In this document: one piece after another, positions 198 to 9,887 of the stretch
Position numbering within the stretch: the first letter of the stretch is position 1
Layout: each line of letters begins with the position of its first letter
The notes under the pieces: model-generated
Told to the model about the DNA's origin: nothing
The model's input: the letters and a program-made list of their open reading frames with translations, nothing else
Database searches by the model: none
Program-made: the position numbers and the translations under genes
Origin: an uncultured Pseudomonadales bacterium
GTDB taxonomy: Bacteria; Patescibacteriota; Microgenomatia; UBA1400; UBA12028
NCBI GenBank assembly: GCA_964509365.1
Contig: CAZDWN010000002.1
Coordinates: 3,701 to 67,700, forward strand
Direction: 5' to 3'
Length of the DNA stretch: 64,000 nt

Positions 198-3152
198 TTA
201 CCAATACACGAGGGTGCGCCAATACTCACCGTTGATCGTCGCTGAGTGGCGCATGACGTAGACATACTCTAGGCCGTCGGTCGTGCCCACTGTGACTAGT
301 CGCTGTCCGACGAGCGCAGCACCCATACCAAATGGCACGGTCGAGCTCGCAACAATCTTGTTTAGGACAATATCAAAATACATCAGACGACCGGTCGCGT
401 CCTTCGTGAAGTAAATGCGGTCGCCACCGTTGTAGTCAAACATCGACCCCGTGGTGAATGTCTCCATTTGTGGTGATACAGACATGTACTCCCAAATATC
501 GTTGCAAATGTCATATCGCTCGATCGTCGGAGTCGCGTTGCCACGGAAACTGTACATGTACCGCGTTCTGTTCCCTGAAGTATCTGATGTGCCATATGCG
601 CGGAAGAGACATGTCCCCGGACCTTTGGTGTTACCTCCCAGGATGGCATACATCGTGTTGGCATCGGAGATCGTCAAAGCACCGTACGTCAGTAAGTTAT
701 TCGTGTTCTGAGAAATAGCAGCTTCTCCTCCGGCTCCGGCAGCGGTGAGCAGTTTGATACGCTTACCGACCAAGATACCTGAGGTCGTATTTCCTTGCCA
801 GTTTTGCGTCGTATCCTGCAGTGTCGTCGTCGCAAATGTACCGGTGGCGAGTCCAAAGTTTTCCATGATTTGATAGACTGTCGTGTTATCTGGCGTAAAT
901 CCGTACCCAGCCGTGGTGATCGTGTTTGCATCATTCGAAGTGATCACGATCTCATTAGCGGTCACGTCGTATCCTGTACCTGCCATAATTTTTATTTTGC
1001 GTCCTGTCCAGAAGTTTGGTGGCCAGTTTTTGCTGCTGTCGACAAGTGTCGTCGATGTACCACCGGTGGCGATTCCCCAGGACCATCGTTCTGGCGCTCG
1101 TTTGGTCGATTCTGTACCTAAAGCTCTTGGATCCATGATGACGTACTTCGTCTGTCCGGAGACGGGTGCGCCCCCAAATGCCAGACCGACCGTGATCGTG
1201 GTCGCTGTGTTGTCGGTGATACGTCGCATATAGGTAGTCGTCGTATTGATACCTGGCGCTGCGATTTGGATGATCTTCCCGATCAATTCTTTTGCTGCCC
1301 AGTTCTTACACACATCGACCAAGAGTGTAGTCGATTGCGCGACAAGTGTCGCTGCCTGAGATGCAGACGTCGCGAATGCAAATGTGTTCGCAGCGGGGAC
1401 AGCGATGATCGTCACGCTGCCATTGAAGTTTGTCGCCCCAGCAGTATCTCCAGAGATGACGACGACGTCTCCAATCTGGAAATTATGGTTGACACCTGTC
1501 GTCGCCGTACCAATTGTCCCAGCAGTGATGTTGATGACTGCACCGGTACCAGCTCCACCCGCATTGATGGTCGTCGCTGAAGTGCCCGTGGAGTAGCCGC
1601 TCCCTGGAGTCTCGAGTGCGATACTTGTGATCGCGCCCGTCGATGGCGTCACTCCAGTGACGCGAACCGTCCCCAGTGTCCCGGTTGTGGTCAAGTTTAA
1701 GATCGCGCCGACGATGTATCCTGTACCTGCTGTATTGACTGAGACTGCCGTCACACCGGTGGTGACTCTCGCGATACCCGATAGACCAATGCCTTGCTGC
1801 CCACCCATCTGCGCACAGAGACCTCGAGCCACGCCATAGTCAAATTGGCGACACATCGTCATTTGGTCAGAATCATTACTAAACATATACATTGCAGATG
1901 CGGCCGATCCAATAGCATATAACTTATCGGAATCGCCCAAGACCTCATATGTGCTACTGGCGGCGACTGGAGTTGTGTCCCAAGCACGCGTCGGAAAGAA
2001 CGTCGTTGCATTATTCGCCAAGATTGTGCGCACTTGCCCGACGCCTGTCCCTCCAGTGATCCGGATCATATAGTTTGCATACCGGTTGATGGCCAGGGCT
2101 TGATTGCTATCGACAAGAGTACGAGCACTCTGCGTACCAGTCGCAGTTCCGGTGATGAGTGGTGTCTCTTGCTCACCAACTTCTTCGAAGGCAAGATCAG
2201 TACCCAAAGCAGCAATCATCAAGGAGTTTTGAGTCCCTCGGTAGTACCATGTATCCGCAACAATATCGTAGTATTGAAGCGTGTAAAACGGCGCTGCAGC
2301 GGCGGAAGACAGGAGCCAGAGACCTCCACTTTCGATCACGAATCGAGACGTGTGATCTGGCGCGGTGGTGAAAGCCGAATCGACGGTGATGATTGAGCTT
2401 TCGATCTGGAATGTACTGGCGTTTGCCGCCGGGACATACGCAGCGAGATACGGTGCGTTATACCATTTCTCGTTGTAGGCACCGACGTTTGGATCGGAGA
2501 TCGTGAGCGTGTTTCCCGTATTGGTGAGAATTTTTCGGATCTGAGATTGTCCAGTACCGTACACGATGCGGACCTGGTAGTCAGTCCATTGATTGTATTT
2601 CCATGTCTGCAAGACATATCCAGAAGCTTGCTGCACCGTCCCATCGGTGAGTGTATGTGCGACAGTCGCAGTGCCTGCAGTAATCGCGGTGATAAACCCA
2701 GAGTCTTGGACGACAGGTTCCGCGACAGACAAAATCGTACGCTCCTGTCCCGCACCTGTGCCAGATAAGATTCTGATCTTATATCCTTTCAGAGTTTGCC
2801 CTGTGAGTCCGGCAATCTGCAATTGGACTTTGGTACTCCCGGAGTCAGGACAAGAGATCACGCGCCCATAATATCCGTGTGTTGGATTTCGAGCAAAATT
2901 TGCTACCGTAAGTGGTGCAGTCGTCGGTGACATCAGCTGTTCCCATGAGTCTGAATACGTATCATAGCGATACATGGCTGGAACAGTGCCAAAAAGAGTG
3001 TAAATATACCGATTCTGTCCAGGATAACGTGAATATGTATCTGATGGACCTGCGGCCTGTACAGTCAGAGCGGTGACTGCAGCTGGGGTGAATCGCATCC
3101 ATTCCCAGACCGGGAGATCGACTTGGACTTTGAGATTATTTGTGAGTGCCAT
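198..3152 (-). CDS. Large repeat protein, no signal peptide. Kelch-like blade motifs at both termini and about five internal '[KR]I[KR]I..GTG.GQ.RTI' repeats. Phage tail-fibre/receptor-binding-like or hypothetical
   Basis: 984-aa ORF. Repeated motifs read directly from the translation (KIRILSGTGAGQERTI, MIRITGGTGVGQVRTI, KIKIMAGTGYDV, KRIKLLTAAGAGGE). Terminal 'RYDxxxDxW' Kelch-like strings. Product assignment is inference. Confidence 0.55.
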   Translation of the reverse strand: MALTNNLKVQVDLPVWEWMRFTPAAVTALTVQAAGPSDTYSRYPGQNRYIYTLFGTVPAMYRYDTYSDSWEQLMSPTTAPLTVANFARNPTHGYYGRVISCPDSGSTKVQLQIAGLTGQTLKGYKIRILSGTGAGQERTILSVAEPVVQDSGFITAITAGTATVAHTLTDGTVQQASGYVLQTWKYNQWTDYQVRIVYGTGQSQIRKILTNTGNTLTISDPNVGAYNEKWYNAPYLAAYVPAANASTFQIESSIITVDSAFTTAPDHTSRFVIESGGLWLLSSAAAAPFYTLQYYDIVADTWYYRGTQNSLMIAALGTDLAFEEVGEQETPLITGTATGTQSARTLVDSNQALAINRYANYMIRITGGTGVGQVRTILANNATTFFPTRAWDTTPVAASSTYEVLGDSDKLYAIGSAASAMYMFSNDSDQMTMCRQFDYGVARGLCAQMGGQQGIGLSGIARVTTGVTAVSVNTAGTGYIVGAILNLTTTGTLGTVRVTGVTPSTGAITSIALETPGSGYSTGTSATTINAGGAGTGAVINITAGTIGTATTGVNHNFQIGDVVVISGDTAGATNFNGSVTIIAVPAANTFAFATSASQAATLVAQSTTLLVDVCKNWAAKELIGKIIQIAAPGINTTTTYMRRITDNTATTITVGLAFGGAPVSGQTKYVIMDPRALGTESTKRAPERWSWGIATGGTSTTLVDSSKNWPPNFWTGRKIKIMAGTGYDVTANEIVITSNDANTITTAGYGFTPDNTTVYQIMENFGLATGTFATTTLQDTTQNWQGNTTSGILVGKRIKLLTAAGAGGEAAISQNTNNLLTYGALTISDANTMYAILGGNTKGPGTCLFRAYGTSDTSGNRTRYMYSFRGNATPTIERYDICNDIWEYMSVSPQMETFTTGSMFDYNGGDRIYFTKDATGRLMYFDIVLNKIVASSTVPFGMGAALVGQRLVTVGTTDGLEYVYVMRHSATINGEYWRTLVYW

Positions 3153-3524
3153 TTAACTCCAACTTAACTTACTACGGATACCGTTTGAATAGGTGTTTCT
3201 GGCGATGTCGATAAGCGAGAAGCGACTATCGATGATGTTTGCTGCGGCTGTCGCCTGTCCGCCAAAGCCGACCACGACTTGCCCCATGTTTACAGTCGAC
3301 GCCACAGCTGTCGAGTTTGCCGCGACTGTACCGGACGCTGTTACCAATAAGTTGGCTGCAGTCCCTTGCTCGACAATGACACGCTGGCGCTGACTCGAGT
3401 CTGTGACGGCGCTACTCTCCAATAATTTTGCGATGCGACGAAGTAAAATGATGGTTTCGTCTTGGACTGGATTGATTGCGGTGCCTGCAGCATTACTGAC
3501 ACGCGTTTGATCAAAATACGACAT
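3153..3524 (-). CDS. Hypothetical 123-aa protein, Ala/Thr/Val-rich, co-oriented with the large repeat protein
   Basis: ORF immediately upstream of (1-nt gap) the 198..3152 gene. No recognisable domain. Confidence 0.45.
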   Translation of the reverse strand: MSYFDQTRVSNAAGTAINPVQDETIILLRRIAKLLESSAVTDSSQRQRVIVEQGTAANLLVTASGTVAANSTAVASTVNMGQVVVGFGGQATAAANIIDSRFSLIDIARNTYSNGIRSKLSWS

Positions 3525-3562: not shown

Positions 3563-3934
3563 TCAAATAATAAACCAACTCGTTCCATTGGAGATGATAT
3601 CCATGGCTGAATACTGAAACGCGATGATGGCAGTCAGATCGCCATCGATCGTCTCACTGCCATTTCCATCGACAGTGACCGTATTGACTGAAGAATCTAT
3701 TTTCTTTATTTGGTAGATCTGATTGGGGTAACTTGCCGCTGCAGGAAGCGTGATCGTGATCGGTGCTGAAGCTGCGTTTACCAAAACAGTTGCGATCGAG
3801 CTGAGCGTAGTGTCTGTGCTGACCGTCGTGATGCTCGTAGTGACGAGGGTTCCGCCCCCAGGGAAAATAATGTCACTAGAAACGTGGGTATGCGAGAGGG
3901 GTTTCCCGAGGATTTTATCTATAGTCACGGCCAT
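3563..3934 (-). CDS. Hypothetical 123-aa Thr/Ser/Val-rich beta-rich protein, phage fibre-like
   Basis: ORF at the head of a three-gene minus-strand cluster. Motif 'ITITLPAAASYPNQIYQIKKIDSSVNTVTVDGNGSETIDGD' resembles small phage structural proteins. Inference only. Confidence 0.45.
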   Translation of the reverse strand: MAVTIDKILGKPLSHTHVSSDIIFPGGGTLVTTSITTVSTDTTLSSIATVLVNAASAPITITLPAAASYPNQIYQIKKIDSSVNTVTVDGNGSETIDGDLTAIIAFQYSAMDIISNGTSWFII

Positions 3935-3962: not shown

Positions 3963-4670
3963 ATGGAAAATGATGAGATTGGCGCCTTTATCGAAAAGTA
4001 TCAACCGTATTTTTATGAAGTCAGGATTCACTTGATTATCACCGTGATCTTGTTCGTGATCGGCTGTGTCGTTGGATTATTTTTCAGTCAAAATATTTTG
4101 GGATTTTTGCTATCGCTGTTTCATTTTGACGGGATTCATATCGTCACGACGTCGCCATATCAGTTTATCGATATTTCGTTGACGATTAGTTTCATCTTGG
4201 GAGTCATTTTCGCTACTCCCTATGCAGTCTTTCGCCTGTATCACTTTGTCCGACCTGCCCTGCGCACGCATGAACGACGATTTATACTCGCGTTCTTTCC
4301 GCTCGCGATCGGACTCTTTGCCGCTGGTTTTTACTTTGGTCTCTGGATCATGCAGCTCGTGATCAATCTGTATGTGCATATCAATAGCAGCTTCTCGATC
4401 AGCAGTTTTTGGGATGTGCAGCACTTTCTCTCGCAAATTTTGTTTACCTCTTTTTTGACTGGGATCGTGTTTGAGATTCCGATCGTCATTAGTGCACTGA
4501 TCAGACTTCACATCTTTTCTTATCATGATTTTGCCAAGCGGCGAAAAGTCGTGTACGCGATCCTCGTGGTCGTTGCGATCCTCTTGCCGACGACTGATTT
4601 TTTATCCCTTGTTCTTGAGACTTTGCCCCTTTTCTTTTTATTCGAGTTGGGGCTATTATTAAATAGATGA
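3963..4670 (+). CDS. tatC: Twin-arginine translocase subunit TatC
   Basis: 235-aa polytopic membrane protein with TatC-like helices and conserved 'ISFILGVIFATPY...FLTGIVFEIPIV' regions. Followed directly by tatA. Confidence 0.8.
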   Translation: MENDEIGAFIEKYQPYFYEVRIHLIITVILFVIGCVVGLFFSQNILGFLLSLFHFDGIHIVTTSPYQFIDISLTISFILGVIFATPYAVFRLYHFVRPALRTHERRFILAFFPLAIGLFAAGFYFGLWIMQLVINLYVHINSSFSISSFWDVQHFLSQILFTSFLTGIVFEIPIVISALIRLHIFSYHDFAKRRKVVYAILVVVAILLPTTDFLSLVLETLPLFFLFELGLLLNR

Positions 4671-4696: not shown

Positions 4697-4879
4697 ATGG
4701 GATTTTTAGAAAATATTGGTACACCAGAAATAATTATTCTCGCAGTCGTTCTATTGATCTTGTTTGGACCAAAGAAGCTCCCAGAATTTGCCAAAGGTTT
4801 GGCTGATGCTGCTCGAGAGATCGTGAAAGCATTCAAAGGTGAAGGCGGATCAGACACCAAAGTCGCGAAAAAAGAATAA
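4697..4879 (+). CDS. tatA: Twin-arginine translocase TatA/E
   Basis: 60 aa, single TM then 'LLILFGPKKLPE' hinge/amphipathic helix hallmark of TatA. RBS-like AGAGAGG upstream. Confidence 0.85.
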   Translation: MGFLENIGTPEIIILAVVLLILFGPKKLPEFAKGLADAAREIVKAFKGEGGSDTKVAKKE

Positions 4880-4887
4880 AATCGACG

Positions 4888-7800
4888 ATGCCCTATAGTA
4901 GGTTGAAAAAAACTATCTGCGCTTGGATTGCGATCCTGGCCATCGTTTGTTCTACGCGCCCGTTTCAAGTATTGGCAGCTGGCACCAGCTACCAAGTTTG
5001 TAAAACAGCGGCCAATTGTACGGTGGGTGAGTATCTCTACGATGACTCCTACACCCCGATCACTTCTGCGACGTGCACGCTCACCAGTCGCAATACTGAT
5101 GGAACTCTGTATCACTCCAGTGTCGCGATGACGTCTGCGGCAGAAAATGATGGATGGTATTCGTACACGTTTGACACAACTGGAAAAGCTGAAGGCATCT
5201 ATCGCGCTCAAGTGTGTTGTACAAGTGGCAGTGACTACCTGTGCTTGGACAAGACATTTCAGATCAGTAGTACCAGTGCTCCGACGGCCGCCGAAGTGGC
5301 GTCGACAGTCTGGGATACGTCGGTCGCCTCTCATACTGTCGCGGGTTCGTTTGGCGCCAACCTCCAATCGCCAGCTCCTAGTGCCAGCGATATCTGGAAT
5401 TATTCCGGACGAAGTTTGACGACGTACGGCTCGCTCATCGCTGACATGTGGAGTTATTCGGGACGTTCTCTCACGAACTTCGGGACATTAATAGCTGATA
5501 TTTGGAGCAACGCGACCAGGACACTCACAGCGGGAATACTTTCCAATGGGACGCATATTGCGACGCAAGAAGACGTCCAGCTTGCGACTGACTCTGCCGT
5601 CGTCTCTATAAAGGGCGCTTCCAACAAAGATTTGACTCAAGTCGGTACGCAAGTGGCCGGAGTCCAATCGACCGCAGATACAATCAATGGCAAAGTAGAC
5701 ACATTGACGACGAGTGTCGGCACACTCAATACAAACATTTCTACCATCCTCACCAAGTGGGGATCCTATTCGGCTGCCGATATTTTGACCGCGGTCAATG
5801 GAGTCTCGACGACGATCGGGACCACCCTTGATACCTGTAGCAACAACACGGTATTTGGAAATGCCTACTGTGCGAAGTCAAAATGGGGAGTGGAGACTTC
5901 TTCCACACTTTTGACCGCGACGAACAATGTCGCGACGACGGCAGCTGCCCTACGAGCCGAACTTGCCTACAACGGCAAATCCACGACAGCGTATGAAGAC
6001 ATGCAGACACTGCTTACGAATTTGGGTACGGTATCTACTGGCGTCGGATCAGTGACTACCGCAATCAGTGGTGTCGATACCAAAGTCGATGCCGTCGCGC
6101 TCCAAGTCTTAGGCGTGCAAACGACTTCAAACACCATCAATGGGAAAGTCGATACTCTCATTTCGACGACAAATACGATCAATACGACGACGAGTACTGG
6201 TAGCGCTGCACTCGCGACTATCAATGCAAAGCTGGATTCCTTGGGGACAAAAGTCGATACACTGACGACCAATGTGACGACATTACTTGACAAGTGGGGA
6301 GCATACTCGGCAAGCGACATCTTCACGATTGTGTCGAGCCTCCAGACAAGTATTGGAACCAATAGCGACAGTTGTTTGTCGACGAGTTTATTTGGCTATG
6401 CGCGCTGTGCCAAAGAAAAATGGGGAACTGCGACGGCAGATGATTTGTTGACCGCCACGACTACTGTCGGTTCGACTGCCACTGCGCTACGAAATGAGCT
6501 TGCGTACAATGGCAAGTCGACGACCGCCTACGAAGATCTTCAAACGCTGTTGGCAAATTTAAGTTCGGTCTCGACGAATGTTAATACTGTTCACACGCAA
6601 GTGACCGGAATTGACACCAAGATGGATACGGTGACGGCCGACGTTCTCGGAATTAGTACGCAAGTCAGTACGGTCTCAGCGAAGATCGATGTGTTGACGA
6701 CCAAAGTCGACAACCTGGCGACGAGTGTGAGTGGCGTCGCCACCAATGTGACCTCGCTGCTCTCGCATTGGTCGACGTACACGATGAGTGATGTCATCAC
6801 AAAATTGACTTCGCTTGAGACGAGCCTCGGGACCTCATCGAACACTTGTGTCGATTTGACTGTCTTTGGTTATTTGACCTGCGTCGAAAACAATGGAGGT
6901 GGAGGTGGTGGAGGAAATGATGCCGCCATTCTCGCGGCTGCCACTGCTGCAGCGGCCGATGCTGCGGCTTTGCGTACGGAGCTTGATTACAATGGCAAGT
7001 CGACGACTGCATATGCCGATCTTCAAAATCTCAAGTCAAATATTACCACCATGCAGACGTTGATCGGTGGTAGTAGCGATGCCTCGAGTGCGACGACCTT
7101 ATTTGGGAGGATCAAAGATGTCCGTGAGACGATCGCCAATCTTGATACTTCTGGAGCGGGTCTTTCTGATCTGCTGGCCAAATGGGGGGATACCTCAGCC
7201 ACTGAGATCTACTCAAAAGTGAAAGATCTGTCAGAAAAAATTGATGCGGTGAATACGGTGTCTGATGTCTCGTCGATTCTAACGCTTTCCAAGGCAAATG
7301 CGGATGACATGCTCGTCCTCAAAAACAAAGTCTTAGAGCTTCGAGCGCTGACGCAACTCAATAAGACACTGCTGCAAGATGGCGCGACCAAGCCGGTTGT
7401 ACAGCTGTGGATGGAAGAAGGAAGTATCATCTTCAAAACTTTGATCACGAATCCTTCGAGCAGTAGTCAATCAGTCCCTGTGAAGTTTTACTTGCCGAAA
7501 GAAGCTGGCGAAAAAGACATCATGAAAATCGACACTGAGCTGACGGCGCATTATGATCCGGATCAAGACGCAGTCTACGTCGGCGGCAACTTCACCTTGG
7601 CGTCACATCAGACAAAGATCGTTTCGATTGAAGTGACTGATATCTGGAAAGTGACCGATGCCGAATTGTTGTCTTTACGTACGCAAGCAGACGAGTTGTT
7701 TAAACCTCTTGAAAAGACTTCGTACTTTGCGCAAGGGTCTACTCTCAAGTCTGATATCACTGCTGCCCTCGACACCGCCAAGCAAGTGCAAGCAGACGCC

Positions 7801-8826
7801 AAGACGCCAGAAGCGCGTATCAAAGCGTATAGAGATGCGACGTCCCAAGTGAAACGAGCGAAAGAAGATATGGCAAGTATGAAGACGTTGGTGACGCAAG
7901 CAGGTTCCGCAGGCTCCCTGCTCGGTTCGGTTGGCGGGATTCAAACCGTCGGGACTTGGGGTCTCATCATCATCTTGACGACCGGATTCGTCTTCTTAGC
8001 ACTCTACATGCGATTGTTGACGCAACAAATCCAAGCGCATCATGCGCAGCCAGTGAAAAAAACAGAAGCAGCATCCGCGGCACAATCTGCTCCTTCAAAT
8101 AAATTGGCATTCGTATTTCCAAATATTCCACCGGAAACGCGATTTATTGGGATGCTATTGATCGCGATTGTGGTCGCTGGTCTCGTGATCGCAATTGCTC
8201 TCAAGTCAAATTTCTTGCAGTCAAGTCGCATTGTACAGCCGACTCCGACACCGAAAGTACATGAGATCAGTGAGTCGCATCGCTCTCCTTCACCGAGTCC
8301 AAAGAGTACCGAACGTCTCGTCAAAGCACTTGAGAAGTATGGAGACTCCGTGAATTTGCGAGAAGGTCCTGGCAAGGAATTTGCTCTGGTCGGCACGATG
8401 AAAAAAGGCCAGTCCTATCCAGTCCTCGATACCTTGACCGACAAAACAAAGACGGTCTGGCTTGAGCTTTCGCAAGCTGCTACGAAAAAGGCATGGGTTT
8501 CCTCAGCATTTGTCGAAGACGTGGCTCAAATGTCGTCCACCTCAGGGTCAGGTGACGTCATGCTCAAAGACCAAAAACAGGTACTTGGCATCGCGACGGA
8601 ATCGAATCTTCCGAGCTACACGATCAATGAAGACAACGTAAAGCTTCGCATCCAACCAATTCCTGATTTTCGTTTTAAGATGATCTTAAGCAAAGGGATG
8701 AGAGTGACCAAGATCGGTGAAGAAAAAGAGTGGACCAATGTCGAGGTCTCGTATCAGGAAGGTCAATCGACCGTCGGGATCGATGGATGGGTGAAGACGG
8801 ATTATCTGGACAGGGCCGGCCTATGA
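4888..8826 (+). CDS. Giant secreted/membrane-anchored surface protein: signal peptide, ~1000-aa Thr/Ser-rich ectodomain with three tandem ~160-180-aa repeats, poly-Gly hinge, coiled-coil region, two TM helices, two C-terminal SH3b-like domains
   Basis: 1312-aa ORF. N-terminal hydrophobic signal. Repeats each contain 'KWGxYSxxDI...C...FGxxxC...ELAYNGKSTTAYEDxQTLL'. TM helices near aa 1020-1090. 'VNLREGPGKEFALVGTMKKGQSYPVLD' and 'MRVTKIGEEKEWTNVEVSYQEGQSTVGIDGWVKTDYL' look like bacterial SH3 domains. Confidence 0.8.
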   Translation: MPYSRLKKTICAWIAILAIVCSTRPFQVLAAGTSYQVCKTAANCTVGEYLYDDSYTPITSATCTLTSRNTDGTLYHSSVAMTSAAENDGWYSYTFDTTGKAEGIYRAQVCCTSGSDYLCLDKTFQISSTSAPTAAEVASTVWDTSVASHTVAGSFGANLQSPAPSASDIWNYSGRSLTTYGSLIADMWSYSGRSLTNFGTLIADIWSNATRTLTAGILSNGTHIATQEDVQLATDSAVVSIKGASNKDLTQVGTQVAGVQSTADTINGKVDTLTTSVGTLNTNISTILTKWGSYSAADILTAVNGVSTTIGTTLDTCSNNTVFGNAYCAKSKWGVETSSTLLTATNNVATTAAALRAELAYNGKSTTAYEDMQTLLTNLGTVSTGVGSVTTAISGVDTKVDAVALQVLGVQTTSNTINGKVDTLISTTNTINTTTSTGSAALATINAKLDSLGTKVDTLTTNVTTLLDKWGAYSASDIFTIVSSLQTSIGTNSDSCLSTSLFGYARCAKEKWGTATADDLLTATTTVGSTATALRNELAYNGKSTTAYEDLQTLLANLSSVSTNVNTVHTQVTGIDTKMDTVTADVLGISTQVSTVSAKIDVLTTKVDNLATSVSGVATNVTSLLSHWSTYTMSDVITKLTSLETSLGTSSNTCVDLTVFGYLTCVENNGGGGGGGNDAAILAAATAAAADAAALRTELDYNGKSTTAYADLQNLKSNITTMQTLIGGSSDASSATTLFGRIKDVRETIANLDTSGAGLSDLLAKWGDTSATEIYSKVKDLSEKIDAVNTVSDVSSILTLSKANADDMLVLKNKVLELRALTQLNKTLLQDGATKPVVQLWMEEGSIIFKTLITNPSSSSQSVPVKFYLPKEAGEKDIMKIDTELTAHYDPDQDAVYVGGNFTLASHQTKIVSIEVTDIWKVTDAELLSLRTQADELFKPLEKTSYFAQGSTLKSDITAALDTAKQVQADAKTPEARIKAYRDATSQVKRAKEDMASMKTLVTQAGSAGSLLGSVGGIQTVGTWGLIIILTTGFVFLALYMRLLTQQIQAHHAQPVKKTEAASAAQSAPSNKLAFVFPNIPPETRFIGMLLIAIVVAGLVIAIALKSNFLQSSRIVQPTPTPKVHEISESHRSPSPSPKSTERLVKALEKYGDSVNLREGPGKEFALVGTMKKGQSYPVLDTLTDKTKTVWLELSQAATKKAWVSSAFVEDVAQMSSTSGSGDVMLKDQKQVLGIATESNLPSYTINEDNVKLRIQPIPDFRFKMILSKGMRVTKIGEEKEWTNVEVSYQEGQSTVGIDGWVKTDYLDRAGL
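5386..5535 (+). repeat. Three short in-frame repeats 'SxSGRSLT(T/N)(Y/F)G(S/T)LIAD(M/I)WS' inside the giant protein
   Basis: Read directly in translation: SASDIWNYSGRSLTTYGSLIADMWSYSGRSLTNFGTLIADIWSNATRTLTAG. Confidence 0.7.
5755..7032 (+). repeat. Three tandem coding repeats (units starting near 5755, 6292, 6766) each with a conserved Cys pair and 'AYNGKSTTAYEDxQTLL' motif. Poly-Gly run encoded at 6895..6915
   Basis: Protein-level tandem repeat seen in the ORF translation. Unit boundaries approximate. Confidence 0.75.
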
Positions 8827-9221
8827 CGGAGACGATTCTCGCTCTCATGTTTGCGTTTGCACTTCCCTTACCGCTCCTCTTTCTTGAAGCGATTGCTCCT
8901 GTGCCATTCTTGATCGAAGAGATGGTTATGGCCATTTTGATACTATTTATTGTCCGCTCTTCGATTGAGGAGCGATGGAAGTTGCCTGCCGTGGTCCTTG
9001 CCGGATTCCTCTTTAGTATCTCTGAGACGATGTTTTACTTGATCAACTATTTGTCTATCGGACAATCGTATTTGGTATTCATCCGATTCTTATTCACTGG
9101 GAGCATGCATGTGCTGACGACCATCGTGATCTATCTCTTTGCGCGAAAGCGAGGCTATAGTGTCCTCATCGGACTCATTCTCGCGATCTTGATCCATTTT
9201 GTCTTCAATACCTTGATTTAA
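8823..9221 (+). CDS. Small polytopic membrane protein (about 4 TM), translationally coupled to the giant surface protein
   Basis: ATG at 8823 overlaps the TGA stop of 4888..8826 (ATGA). Hydrophobic helices throughout. The longer upstream extension from 8730 rejected. Confidence 0.55.
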   Translation: MTETILALMFAFALPLPLLFLEAIAPVPFLIEEMVMAILILFIVRSSIEERWKLPAVVLAGFLFSISETMFYLINYLSIGQSYLVFIRFLFTGSMHVLTTIVIYLFARKRGYSVLIGLILAILIHFVFNTLI

Positions 9222-9241: not shown

Positions 9242-9751
9242 ATGAAAGAGCGACCACATCTCAAAGATTTTGTTATTCGATTGGCGAGCGCCGGAATTCT
9301 TATCGCGGTACTCGCTGACTGCTCTCCATCTCAAGTCATTCCGACGGCCGAAGCGACACAAATGACGCCTGAGCGTGTTCCGACGCCCGAGAAACTTATC
9401 GCTCGGTTCGTCCAAACAGAAGCTGGCCAACCTCCCTTGTTGGAACTGCCGGTTGATGCGGTCATGCGCGCTTCCTTTATCTCACCAGATCAAAGTTACA
9501 GCATTTCAGTAGTGAGCTATGCTGGCAAAGATTGGTTTTTGTTTACGAGCAGCAATCCCTTTGCATTGCAGGTCTCGAGCATTGGAGTGTCACCGATTGA
9601 TGTTTCGAGTGCTCCCGCCACGAGTAAGACACGGCCATTCACTTTTTTGTTTGACGCCACAGACGGTTCCAAATTTTTGTTTGATGCCAAGACCGGCGAA
9701 GTGACAGCGGTAGATCCAAGTGTGTTGACGCCTGTCGCTCCACATTTCTAG
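9242..9751 (+). CDS. Secreted/lipoprotein-like hypothetical protein
   Basis: 169 aa with N-terminal hydrophobic segment ending 'AVLADCS' (imperfect lipobox) and a mature Ser/Pro-rich region. Confidence 0.5.
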   Translation: MKERPHLKDFVIRLASAGILIAVLADCSPSQVIPTAEATQMTPERVPTPEKLIARFVQTEAGQPPLLELPVDAVMRASFISPDQSYSISVVSYAGKDWFLFTSSNPFALQVSSIGVSPIDVSSAPATSKTRPFTFLFDATDGSKFLFDAKTGEVTAVDPSVLTPVAPHF

Positions 9752-9813: not shown

Positions 9814-9887
9814 GCGGCTATGGTTCAGTGGTAGAACACGTCCTTGCCAAGGACGAAATGCGGGTTCGATTCCCGCTAGCCGCTCCA
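9814..9887 (+). tRNA. tRNA-Gly (anticodon GCC), CCA encoded
   Basis: Manual fold: acceptor GCGGCTA/TAGCCGC, D-arm, anticodon stem CGTCC/GGACG with loop TTGCCAA (GCC), T-arm GCGGG-TTCGATT-CCCGC, discriminator T, CCA. Confidence 0.9.

Follow-up and report, generated by a model that had tools for sequence, protein, structure and literature searches.

What does a member of the Patescibacteria build with a surface protein of 1312 amino acids (aa), and why is the gene of this protein kept next to those of the twin-arginine translocation (Tat) pathway and of a small membrane protein? The question is raised by one locus within a 64,000-nucleotide (nt) stretch of an uncultured bacterium (GenBank assembly GCA_964509365.1, contig CAZDWN010000002.1, positions 3,701 to 67,700 of the forward strand), which is referred to as the window and from whose first letter all positions are counted. 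There, tatC, tatA, the gene of the large protein (hereafter the giant) and the small gene follow one another. Patescibacteria represent a large share of bacterial diversity, and the construction of their surface and the way in which their cells make contact are hardly known.

The answer favored here, tentatively and from sequence comparison, is that the giant forms a core envelope fiber of Microgenomates, WWE3 and Dojkabacteria, and that the small neighbor, a predicted miniature protease of the PrsW family, acts on the first of its two transmembrane (TM) helices, TM1. The giant belongs to a large, unnamed family confined to Patescibacteria lineages and, together with the protease and the Tat genes, points to an undescribed envelope system. 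Wall-anchored fibers with coiled-coil repeats are a known general kind of structure; the giant family itself, its anchoring by a membrane hairpin plus SH3b domains, the disulfide-knob repeat, the minimal PrsW partner and the Tat neighborhood appear undescribed, and the literature consulted contained nothing linking bacteria of the Candidate Phyla Radiation (CPR) with PrsW and nothing describing the giant family. The system offers several handles for study: variation of the predicted fiber length by whole units, a perfect co-occurrence of paired cysteines, a candidate dedicated protease cut down to its catalytic core, and a tight, unexplained link to Tat genes that are expanded in many relatives.

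Conservation of the Four-Gene Neighborhood

The locus comprises the following genes:

3963..4670, plus strand: tatC, 235 aa, first gene of the neighborhood (Pfam TatC, E 1.1e-37, 130.3 bits)
4697..4879, plus strand: tatA, 60 aa (Pfam TatA_B_E, E 1.7e-12, 46.8 bits)
4888..8826, plus strand: giant surface protein, 1312 aa plus stop (uninterrupted open reading frame and its translation)
8823..9221, plus strand: predicted miniature PrsW-family intramembrane protease, 132 aa (start overlaps the stop of the giant)

The reading frame of the giant is open for 1312 codons, in agreement with a preliminary description of this DNA. TatC and TatA of the window score above the Pfam cut-offs and below the stricter NCBIfam equivalog cut-offs. 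The order tatC, tatA, giant, small gene is shared with loci of giant homologues at 39-49% identity. Of 82 loci, 74 have the small gene within 6 kb of the giant, 75 have TatA and 62 have TatC at this distance; at the 57 well-flanked loci, where the sequence extends for at least 2.5 kb to either side, these counts were 55, 56 and 52, all three genes being present at 50. The linkage at these 50 of 57 loci spans Microgenomates, WWE3 and Dojkabacteria, and at the well-flanked loci a median of 1 nt separates the small gene from the giant.

The order and strand of the genes change from locus to locus. The most frequent arrangement has the giant facing the small gene, tatA and tatC on the opposite strand (19 loci), followed by tatA and the giant facing the small gene and tatC (15 loci), tatC-tatA-giant-small (8 loci) and tatA-tatC-giant-small (5 loci). 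With several further ones, 19 distinct arrangements were counted, and every pairing of the four genes occurs within some operon. The remaining flanking genes were conserved less than the four-gene set in a neighborhood clustering. The same neighborhood was recovered from the opposite side, when four protease homologues on long contigs, picked independently of the giant, were taken as the starting point: TatA and TatC were present every time and a large neighbor (789-920 aa) stood at all four loci, with SH3 matches recorded for three of the four (one of them split into calls of 420 and 500 aa) and no recorded Pfam match for the fourth, of 789 aa. As the adjacency survives repeated rearrangement, it argues for a functional coupling of the four genes.

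The ATG of the small gene at 8823 overlaps the TGA stop of the giant as ATGA, from which obligate co-expression had been proposed. The overlap is there; however, it is limited to the clade of the window, and elsewhere in the family the small gene is mostly adjacent but convergent, or lies in an operon with tatC/tatA. The linkage is a conserved neighborhood and not a universal translational coupling.

A Predicted Miniature PrsW-Type Protease and the Conserved TM1

The small neighbor had been described as an anonymous membrane protein with four TM helices. Four to five hydrophobic segments are found, and the protein can now be assigned to a family as a predicted PrsW-type protease. PrsW is the site-1 protease of the anti-sigma factor RsiW in B. 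subtilis (MEROPS M82, PF13367). The window copy matches positions 52-173 of the 196 in the Pfam PrsW profile (E 2e-4, 21.4 bits vs. a cut-off of 23.5), 14 of 22 orthologues match it at E <= 0.01 (best 3.7e-8), and orthologues are named PrsW by NCBI and JGI. In an alignment of 72 orthologues P15, E32, E33, E68, H96, H125 and N129 are invariant, and K36, F64, R88 and T92 are at least 94% conserved, which corresponds to the four PrsW motifs EExxK, FxxxE, TxxxH and HxxxN. A search of the PDB with the protease profile gave nothing useful. An alternative ATG at 8787 would yield a product of 144 aa, as in the NCBI-derived record; the orthologue alignment favors the start at 8823.

The four motifs and the invariant residues of catalytic type are shared with the PrsW and CPBP families, the latter including myxosortase. 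However, PrsW proteins typically have eight helices (PMC3482391), whereas the orthologues of the small neighbor are 115-160 aa long, which suggests that they consist of the catalytic core alone; the 132-aa core of the window would make a useful minimal model of such proteases. They also differ in the lack of an anti-sigma partner and of a C-terminal sorting tag with an invariant Cys, and the window copy in reading EExxM. Codon 36 of this copy (nt 8928-8930) encodes Met in place of the Lys that 94% of the 72 orthologues carry in EExxK, and the enzyme of the window may be altered or compensated. Precedents exist in both families: large surface or toxin proteins are known or proposed substrates of PrsW-type peptidases (PMC3482391), and surface proteins are sorted by an intramembrane protease of the CPBP family (PMC11980579).

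The candidate target lies in the first of the two TM helices of the giant, both of which were found as previously described:

7918..8025, plus strand: Gly-rich motif and TM1, aa 1011-1046 (GSLLGSVGGIQTVGTWGLIIILTTGFVFLALYMR), with the TM1 helix at aa 1026-1044 (hydropathy)
8146..8202, plus strand: TM2, aa 1087-1105 (hydropathy 3.08)

The segment with the Gly-rich motif and TM1 has a mean information of 2.77 bits, on par with the folded domains of the protein, and G1013, G1016, G1017, W1024, G1033 and Y1040 are near-invariant; TM2 reaches 1.49 bits, and the basic cytoplasmic loop that precedes it (aa 1047-1086) is poorly conserved (1.17 bits). Such conservation of TM1 is unusual for a plain membrane anchor. 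It is typical of segments that are recognized inside the membrane, and Gly-rich TM helices are typical of the substrates of intramembrane proteases. The adjacency of the genes and the conservation of TM1, including its four near-invariant glycines, suggest that the protease acts on the giant.

Architecture and Distribution of the Giant

Outside the membrane hairpin and the Cys-pair repeats, the following features were recognized in the giant from the N- to the C-terminus (pLDDT, predicted local distance difference test):

4888..4980, plus strand: Sec-type signal peptide, aa 1-31, predicted cleavage between VLA and AG (sequence reading)
4993..5268, plus strand: N-terminal Ig-like beta-sandwich, aa 36-127, six Cys (AlphaFold, pLDDT ~95)
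5290..5367, plus strand: motif AEVASTVWD..SH..GSFGANLQ, aa 135-160, recurring in Beta_helix neighbors elsewhere
5389..5532, plus strand: three 18-aa repeats IWxYSGRSLTxFGxLIAD, aa 168-215 (regular expression matches at aa 170, 188 and 206)
7228..7962, plus strand: constant juxtamembrane module, aa 781-1025, made of helices, a seven-strand beta-sandwich and helices (AlphaFold, pLDDT >90)
7396-7635, plus strand: beta-sandwich inside the constant module, aa 837-916, seven strands
8317..8520, plus strand: SH3b domain 1, aa 1144-1211 (Pfam SH3_3 at aa 1153-1210; beta-barrel, pLDDT >90)
8614..8814, plus strand: SH3b domain 2, aa 1243-1309 (second Pfam SH3_3 stretch; Foldseek)

The Ig-like domain, the IW repeats, the beta-sandwich at aa 837-916 and a partial fourth repeat unit (see below) are additions to the preliminary description. 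The basic loop between the two TM helices, according to the positive-inside rule, would place the SH3b domains as well as the long N-terminal part outside the cell. The unusual architecture noted before, with a signal peptide, a long ectodomain, a hairpin and then extracellular SH3b domains, is upheld as a prediction. The SH3b domains, which are separated from TM2 by a Pro/Ser/Thr-rich linker and are predicted to bind peptidoglycan, are confirmed by the Pfam profile (SH3_3, PF08239; two stretches, 51.9 bits vs. a cut-off of 27) and by fold matches: Foldseek retrieved tandem SH3b proteins (9a7d with E 2e-9, 3npf, 4krt and 6ilu), and fold likeness was found to 2krs (template modeling score, TM-score, of 0.73) and 9ovi (TM-score 0.75, root mean square deviation 2.3). 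Domain 1 is present in only ~13% of the aligned homologues, most of which carry one SH3b domain. The AlphaFold model of aa 691-1312 has a mean pLDDT of 83.7, exceeding 90 in the constant module and both SH3b domains.

The rest of the protein resembles little that has been named. Outside the SH3b domains, Pfam, NCBIfam and PHROGs gave only low-complexity coiled-coil noise (e.g., NPV_P10 and HSBP1), and a comparison with PDB sequences nothing better than E 0.55. The IW repeats have no Pfam match, the constant module found no convincing fold match with Foldseek (PDB and BFVD), and the matches of the Ig-like domain are generic (Ig, filamin, macroglobulin-type and S-layer Ig domains). A relative of solved structure was discarded, as Foldseek against PDB and BFVD matched only the SH3b and generic Ig/beta-sandwich folds. 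No LPXTG/sortase signal is present, the C-terminus reading KTDYLDRAGL after the SH3b domain, and neither an SLH nor another S-layer anchoring domain was found in Pfam and NCBIfam.

A word-indexed search retrieved 72 relatives of the giant, of 730-1780 aa, which are unnamed or called 'SH3 domain-containing', and an exhaustive profile search (E <= 1e-30) 770 clusters at 50% identity with members of up to 2763 aa; P0203 and P0208 are among the long ones (2176-2763 aa). In P0023, P0025 and P0027, extra DUF2341 and Laminin_G_3 (lectin-like) modules precede the Ig domain at the N-terminus. The N-termini of the 72 homologues are Lys-rich, with AxA-type sites and no conserved twin arginine, and the constant module is full-length in 71 of them. 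The most conserved segments are the IW repeats (3.05 bits), followed by the beta-sandwich (2.86 bits), the Ig-like domain (2.79 bits, four of its Cys being at least 90% conserved) and the Gly-rich/TM1 segment.

In a scan with one genome per GTDB species, 98 genomes encode a giant. Where the titles are informative, they name Shapiro-, Collier-, Woese-, Davies-, Roizman-, Levy-, Gottesman-, Ames- and Beckwithbacteria, WWE3 and Dojkabacteria, and all relatives come from Patescibacteria lineages. Many records of metagenome-assembled genomes (L003, L004, L007 and others) are titled 'uncultured Gammaproteobacteria' or 'Pseudomonadales bacterium'; since their loci share a gene content of Patescibacteria type, these titles were deemed unreliable and look like misassigned or placeholder taxonomy. 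The family is cellular, and no viral copies were found: IMG/VR held no relative, aa 130-270 had no tblastn match in 50,697 phage records, and PHROGs matched the SH3b domains only, on which grounds a phage or prophage origin was rejected.

The Cys-Pair Repeats of the Stalk

Between the IW repeats and the constant module lie the repeats:

5692..6063, plus strand: core of repeat 1, aa 269-392, Cys 317/328 (hidden Markov model, HMM, 151 bits)
6229..6600, plus strand: core of repeat 2, aa 448-571, Cys 496/507 (HMM, 143 bits)
6703..7083, plus strand: core of repeat 3, aa 606-732, Cys 654/665, variant with seven glycines (HMM, 131 bits)
7117..7293, plus strand: partial fourth unit, aa 744-802 (KWGDTSATEIYSKV; HMM positions 8-53 only)

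The three tandem repeats of the preliminary description, each with its Cys pair, were recovered as three full copies by the HMM and by pairwise BLASTP (repeats 1 and 2, 59% identity, E 4e-52; 1 and 3, 41%, E 7e-26; 2 and 3, 43%, E 9e-28). The units measure ~160-180 aa, with cores of ~124 aa. The block of the type ELAYNGKSTTAYEDxQTLL, which had been called invariant, proved to be identical in repeats 1 and 2 only; in repeat 3 it reads ELDYNGKSTTAYADLQNLK, and the first motif of this repeat is HWSTYTMSDV in place of the KWG motif. The run of seven glycines (aa 670-676, nt 6895-6915) had been placed as a hinge after the third repeat. This position had to be revised: the run is part of repeat 3 and stands in for the second KWG segment of that unit, after its second Cys and before its YNGK block. 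Part of the run is encoded by a TGGAGG hexanucleotide repeat (2.5 copies, nt 6894-6908), so that its length could shift in frame through slippage, and relatives carry shorter Gly runs at this site. As previously suggested, the repeat unit matches no named family (Pfam, NCBIfam, PHROGs and PDB sequences). The partial unit also occurs in family members of 730-760 aa that lack any full repeat.

The expected length polymorphism of the array was observed among the relatives, in which the number of full units varies from 0 to 6; as most members have one or none, the three repeats of the window fall in the upper tail. Recent expansion by slippage was ruled out by a DNA identity among the repeats of only 71-76% (spacings of 537 and 483 nt) and by Tandem Repeats Finder, which detected no array in the repeat region. 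Given this low identity, the repeats would be old duplications that are kept by selection on the protein. Each unit is, in addition, half-duplicated internally, 'KWG...ILTAVNGVSTT' and 'KWG...LLTATNNVATT' being 42 aa apart; in repeat 1 the two halves (nt 5783-5814 and 5909-5940) have a DNA identity of 75%.

Among 143 non-redundant units of the family, both cysteines are present in 79 and neither in 64, and no unit has a single one; in the Cys-less units the two positions are mostly Ser/Gln/Asp and Trp/Phe/Tyr. This all-or-none pattern is expected of a disulfide, or at least of a direct contact, and the covariation predicts that the pair behaves as a disulfide. The stalk is predicted to be largely helical, with a significant heptad periodicity in the stretches that separate the Cys knobs.

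A Model of the Fiber and Its Alternatives

In the proposed model, the Sec-type signal peptide would export the N-terminal part of the giant, and the two-helix hairpin (N-terminus out, short basic loop inside, C-terminus out) would keep the protein in the membrane and put the C-terminal SH3b domains outside, where they could bind peptidoglycan. A mainly alpha-helical, heptad-periodic stalk would begin at the conserved helix/beta-sandwich module and continue through a variable number of Cys-pair units, which would set the distance of the head from the membrane. The strongly conserved distal head, composed of the IWxYSGRSLT repeats, the VWD..H..GSFG motif and the Ig-like domain, would be a conserved platform for docking or binding and not a variable, host-specific adhesin. 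The miniature PrsW-type protease may act on the Gly-rich TM1 for maturation of the fiber or for its release from a precursor anchor, and for TatA and TatC the likeliest of the possible roles would be the export of folded partner proteins that associate with the fiber.

Several observations weigh against this model. The case for cleavage is made up of the neighborhood and the conservation of TM1 only; a cut at TM1 would part the fiber from its SH3b anchor, and the model leaves the mature arrangement unexplained. The protease of the window has the Met described above at a position where Lys is 94% conserved and scores just below the Pfam cut-off, and two well-flanked loci (L006 and L080) have no small gene nearby. 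The repeat region was modeled as a monomer, helical, at moderate confidence (pLDDT 50-80). Finally, a twin-arginine motif is missing from both candidate positions of the giant, which leaves the Tat link without a mechanism. The S/T-R-R-x-F-L-K motif is absent from its signal peptide, which has SRLKK in the window, and RR occurs in the signal peptides of only a few of the 72 homologues. An internal RR before a late membrane helix is a mark of dual Sec/Tat targeting, as in the Rieske protein Sco2149; within 10 residues of TM2, RR was found in 7 of 102 sequences and forms no consensus there. The giant was accordingly rejected as a Tat substrate.

The alternative that survives best, and is nevertheless considered unlikely, is that the giant is a host-attachment adhesin of an epibiont, whose Ig-like head binds the host and whose repeat number tunes its reach. 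The head-stalk-anchor layout with an Ig-like tip and the variable length of the stalk would suit such a role, as would the DUF2341 and Laminin_G_3 modules of some homologues and the restriction of all relatives to Patescibacteria. However, the tip of an adhesin is usually variable when different hosts are faced, whereas the distal head of the giant is among the best-conserved parts of the protein across class-level diversity (2.8-3.05 bits), and a host-specific adhesin therefore fits poorly. Moreover, the giant is present in a single copy in the window, beside housekeeping Tat genes, and no adhesin family was matched in Pfam and NCBIfam.

It is doubtful that the giant is a wall-spanning accessory of a specialized Tat translocase which, in analogy with EsaA/YueB, would guide or dock folded Tat cargo. 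TatA and TatC are adjacent in ~90% or more of the loci although the arrangements change, and there is a precedent in B. subtilis, where phoD adjoins the dedicated tatAd/tatCd. In most loci TatA is present beside the giant as 3-4 paralogues, and up to 8, which is unusual for Tat systems (e.g., L086 at 308-2148 and 5927-6073, L015, L053, L055, L072 and L076); candidate cargo would be nearby signal-less Beta_helix and phage-tail-like proteins, the former sharing a VWD..H..G.FG motif with the giant. But the twin arginine was seen neither in the giant nor in the N-termini of the example neighbors inspected, the window has one TatA, no Beta_helix neighbor and lineage-specific upstream genes, and the giant has no similarity to EsaA/YueB or another secretion component in Pfam, NCBIfam and Foldseek searches. 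A wider reading, equally doubtful, combines the four genes, the expanded TatA and the Beta_helix and phage-tail-like neighbors into an unrecognized envelope-assembly system of Patescibacteria. Here a specialized Tat translocase would export folded fiber or spike proteins, these would dock on the stalk through the shared VWD..H..G.FG motif, and the miniature PrsW protease would mature or release the assembly.

Inherited synteny without coupling, in which the giant would simply be a structural protein bound to the wall while the protease and the Tat genes serve other substrates, is improbable. The evidence for interaction is indirect, the genomes all belong to related lineages and the giant lacks a Tat signal, all of which would be compatible with it. 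Yet the adjacency has outlasted many inversions and reorderings (19 arrangements), the other flanking genes are not conserved and the same neighborhood emerges when the search starts from the protease; it is the rearrangements that make pure synteny unlikely. The least probable explanation is an envelope-stress sensor, in which damage or contact would lead to site-1 cleavage of the giant and to a downstream response as in PrsW/RsiW: the partner is of the PrsW family and TM1 is conserved and Gly-rich, but all that lies in the cytoplasm is a short, poorly conserved loop (~17-60 residues, 1.17 bits) with no anti-sigma or other signaling domain, and neighborhood clustering found no sigma-factor family among the recurrent neighbors.

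Comparison With Known Systems

The envelope fiber favored here has several partial counterparts. With fibrils of the streptococcal M protein type, the giant shares the signal peptide, the coiled-coil stalk with variable repeats and the C-terminal wall attachment; it differs in its predicted use of a membrane hairpin and non-covalent SH3b binding instead of an LPXTG/sortase signal and in having a conserved rather than hypervariable tip, and no sequence or fold relationship was found. The tandem SH3b fold and its sequence family are those of endolysins and NlpC/P60 hydrolases (Psm, 4krt; LysPBC5, 6ilu; YrvJ, 9a7d; BT_1314, 4r0k), whereas in the giant these domains follow a membrane hairpin, no catalytic domain is present and most family members have a single SH3b.

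EsaA/YueB of type VIIb secretion are likewise membrane-anchored, with an elongated helical ectodomain through the wall, and are encoded with an export machine. No homology to them was detected, the topology is different and the machine is Tat and not type VII, so that the likeness would be a functional analogy only. Finally, a Thr/Ser/Asn-rich heptad stalk with small knobs and Trp motifs is reminiscent of phage tail fibers and trimeric autotransporter adhesins, from which the giant is set apart by PHROG matches limited to SH3b and by the absence of relatives in the phage records and IMG/VR.

Other Genes Near the Locus

Divergent from tatC, on the minus strand, lie three signal-less open reading frames:

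198-3152, minus strand: 984 aa, no Pfam match
3153-3524, minus strand: 123 aa, no Pfam match
3563-3934, minus strand: 123 aa, no Pfam match; weak PHROG matches to baseplate and tail proteins (E ~3e-4)

These genes recur only in the 3-4 closest relatives of the giant (L001, L005 and L006). Being lineage-restricted and unrelated to the Beta_helix and 660-aa neighbors found elsewhere, they were rejected as part of the core module.

At ~40 or more other loci, a right-handed Beta_helix protein of ~432 aa with no signal peptide is encoded beside the Tat genes (L011, 2404-3702; L012, 2470-3774; L084, 612-1910; L085, 606-1904), usually with an unmatched protein of ~660 aa upstream of it. The Beta_helix neighbors end in 'SEIADAVWDE...GH...G.TGKTLKDAK', a motif of ~30 aa in common with aa 135-160 of the giant.

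Downstream of the protease gene, the window contains an open reading frame of 169 aa (9242-9751) that matches no family and has a signal resembling that of lipoproteins (VLADC). It is followed by a tRNA gene (9814-9884), and neither of the two is conserved with the four-gene module. No rRNA was found in the window. A twin-arginine-like N-terminus, TRRVLIV and then a hydrophobic stretch, occurs in just one open reading frame of the window, which encodes 201 aa from 24796 onward on the plus strand; this N-terminus may be either a Tat signal or simply a membrane anchor.

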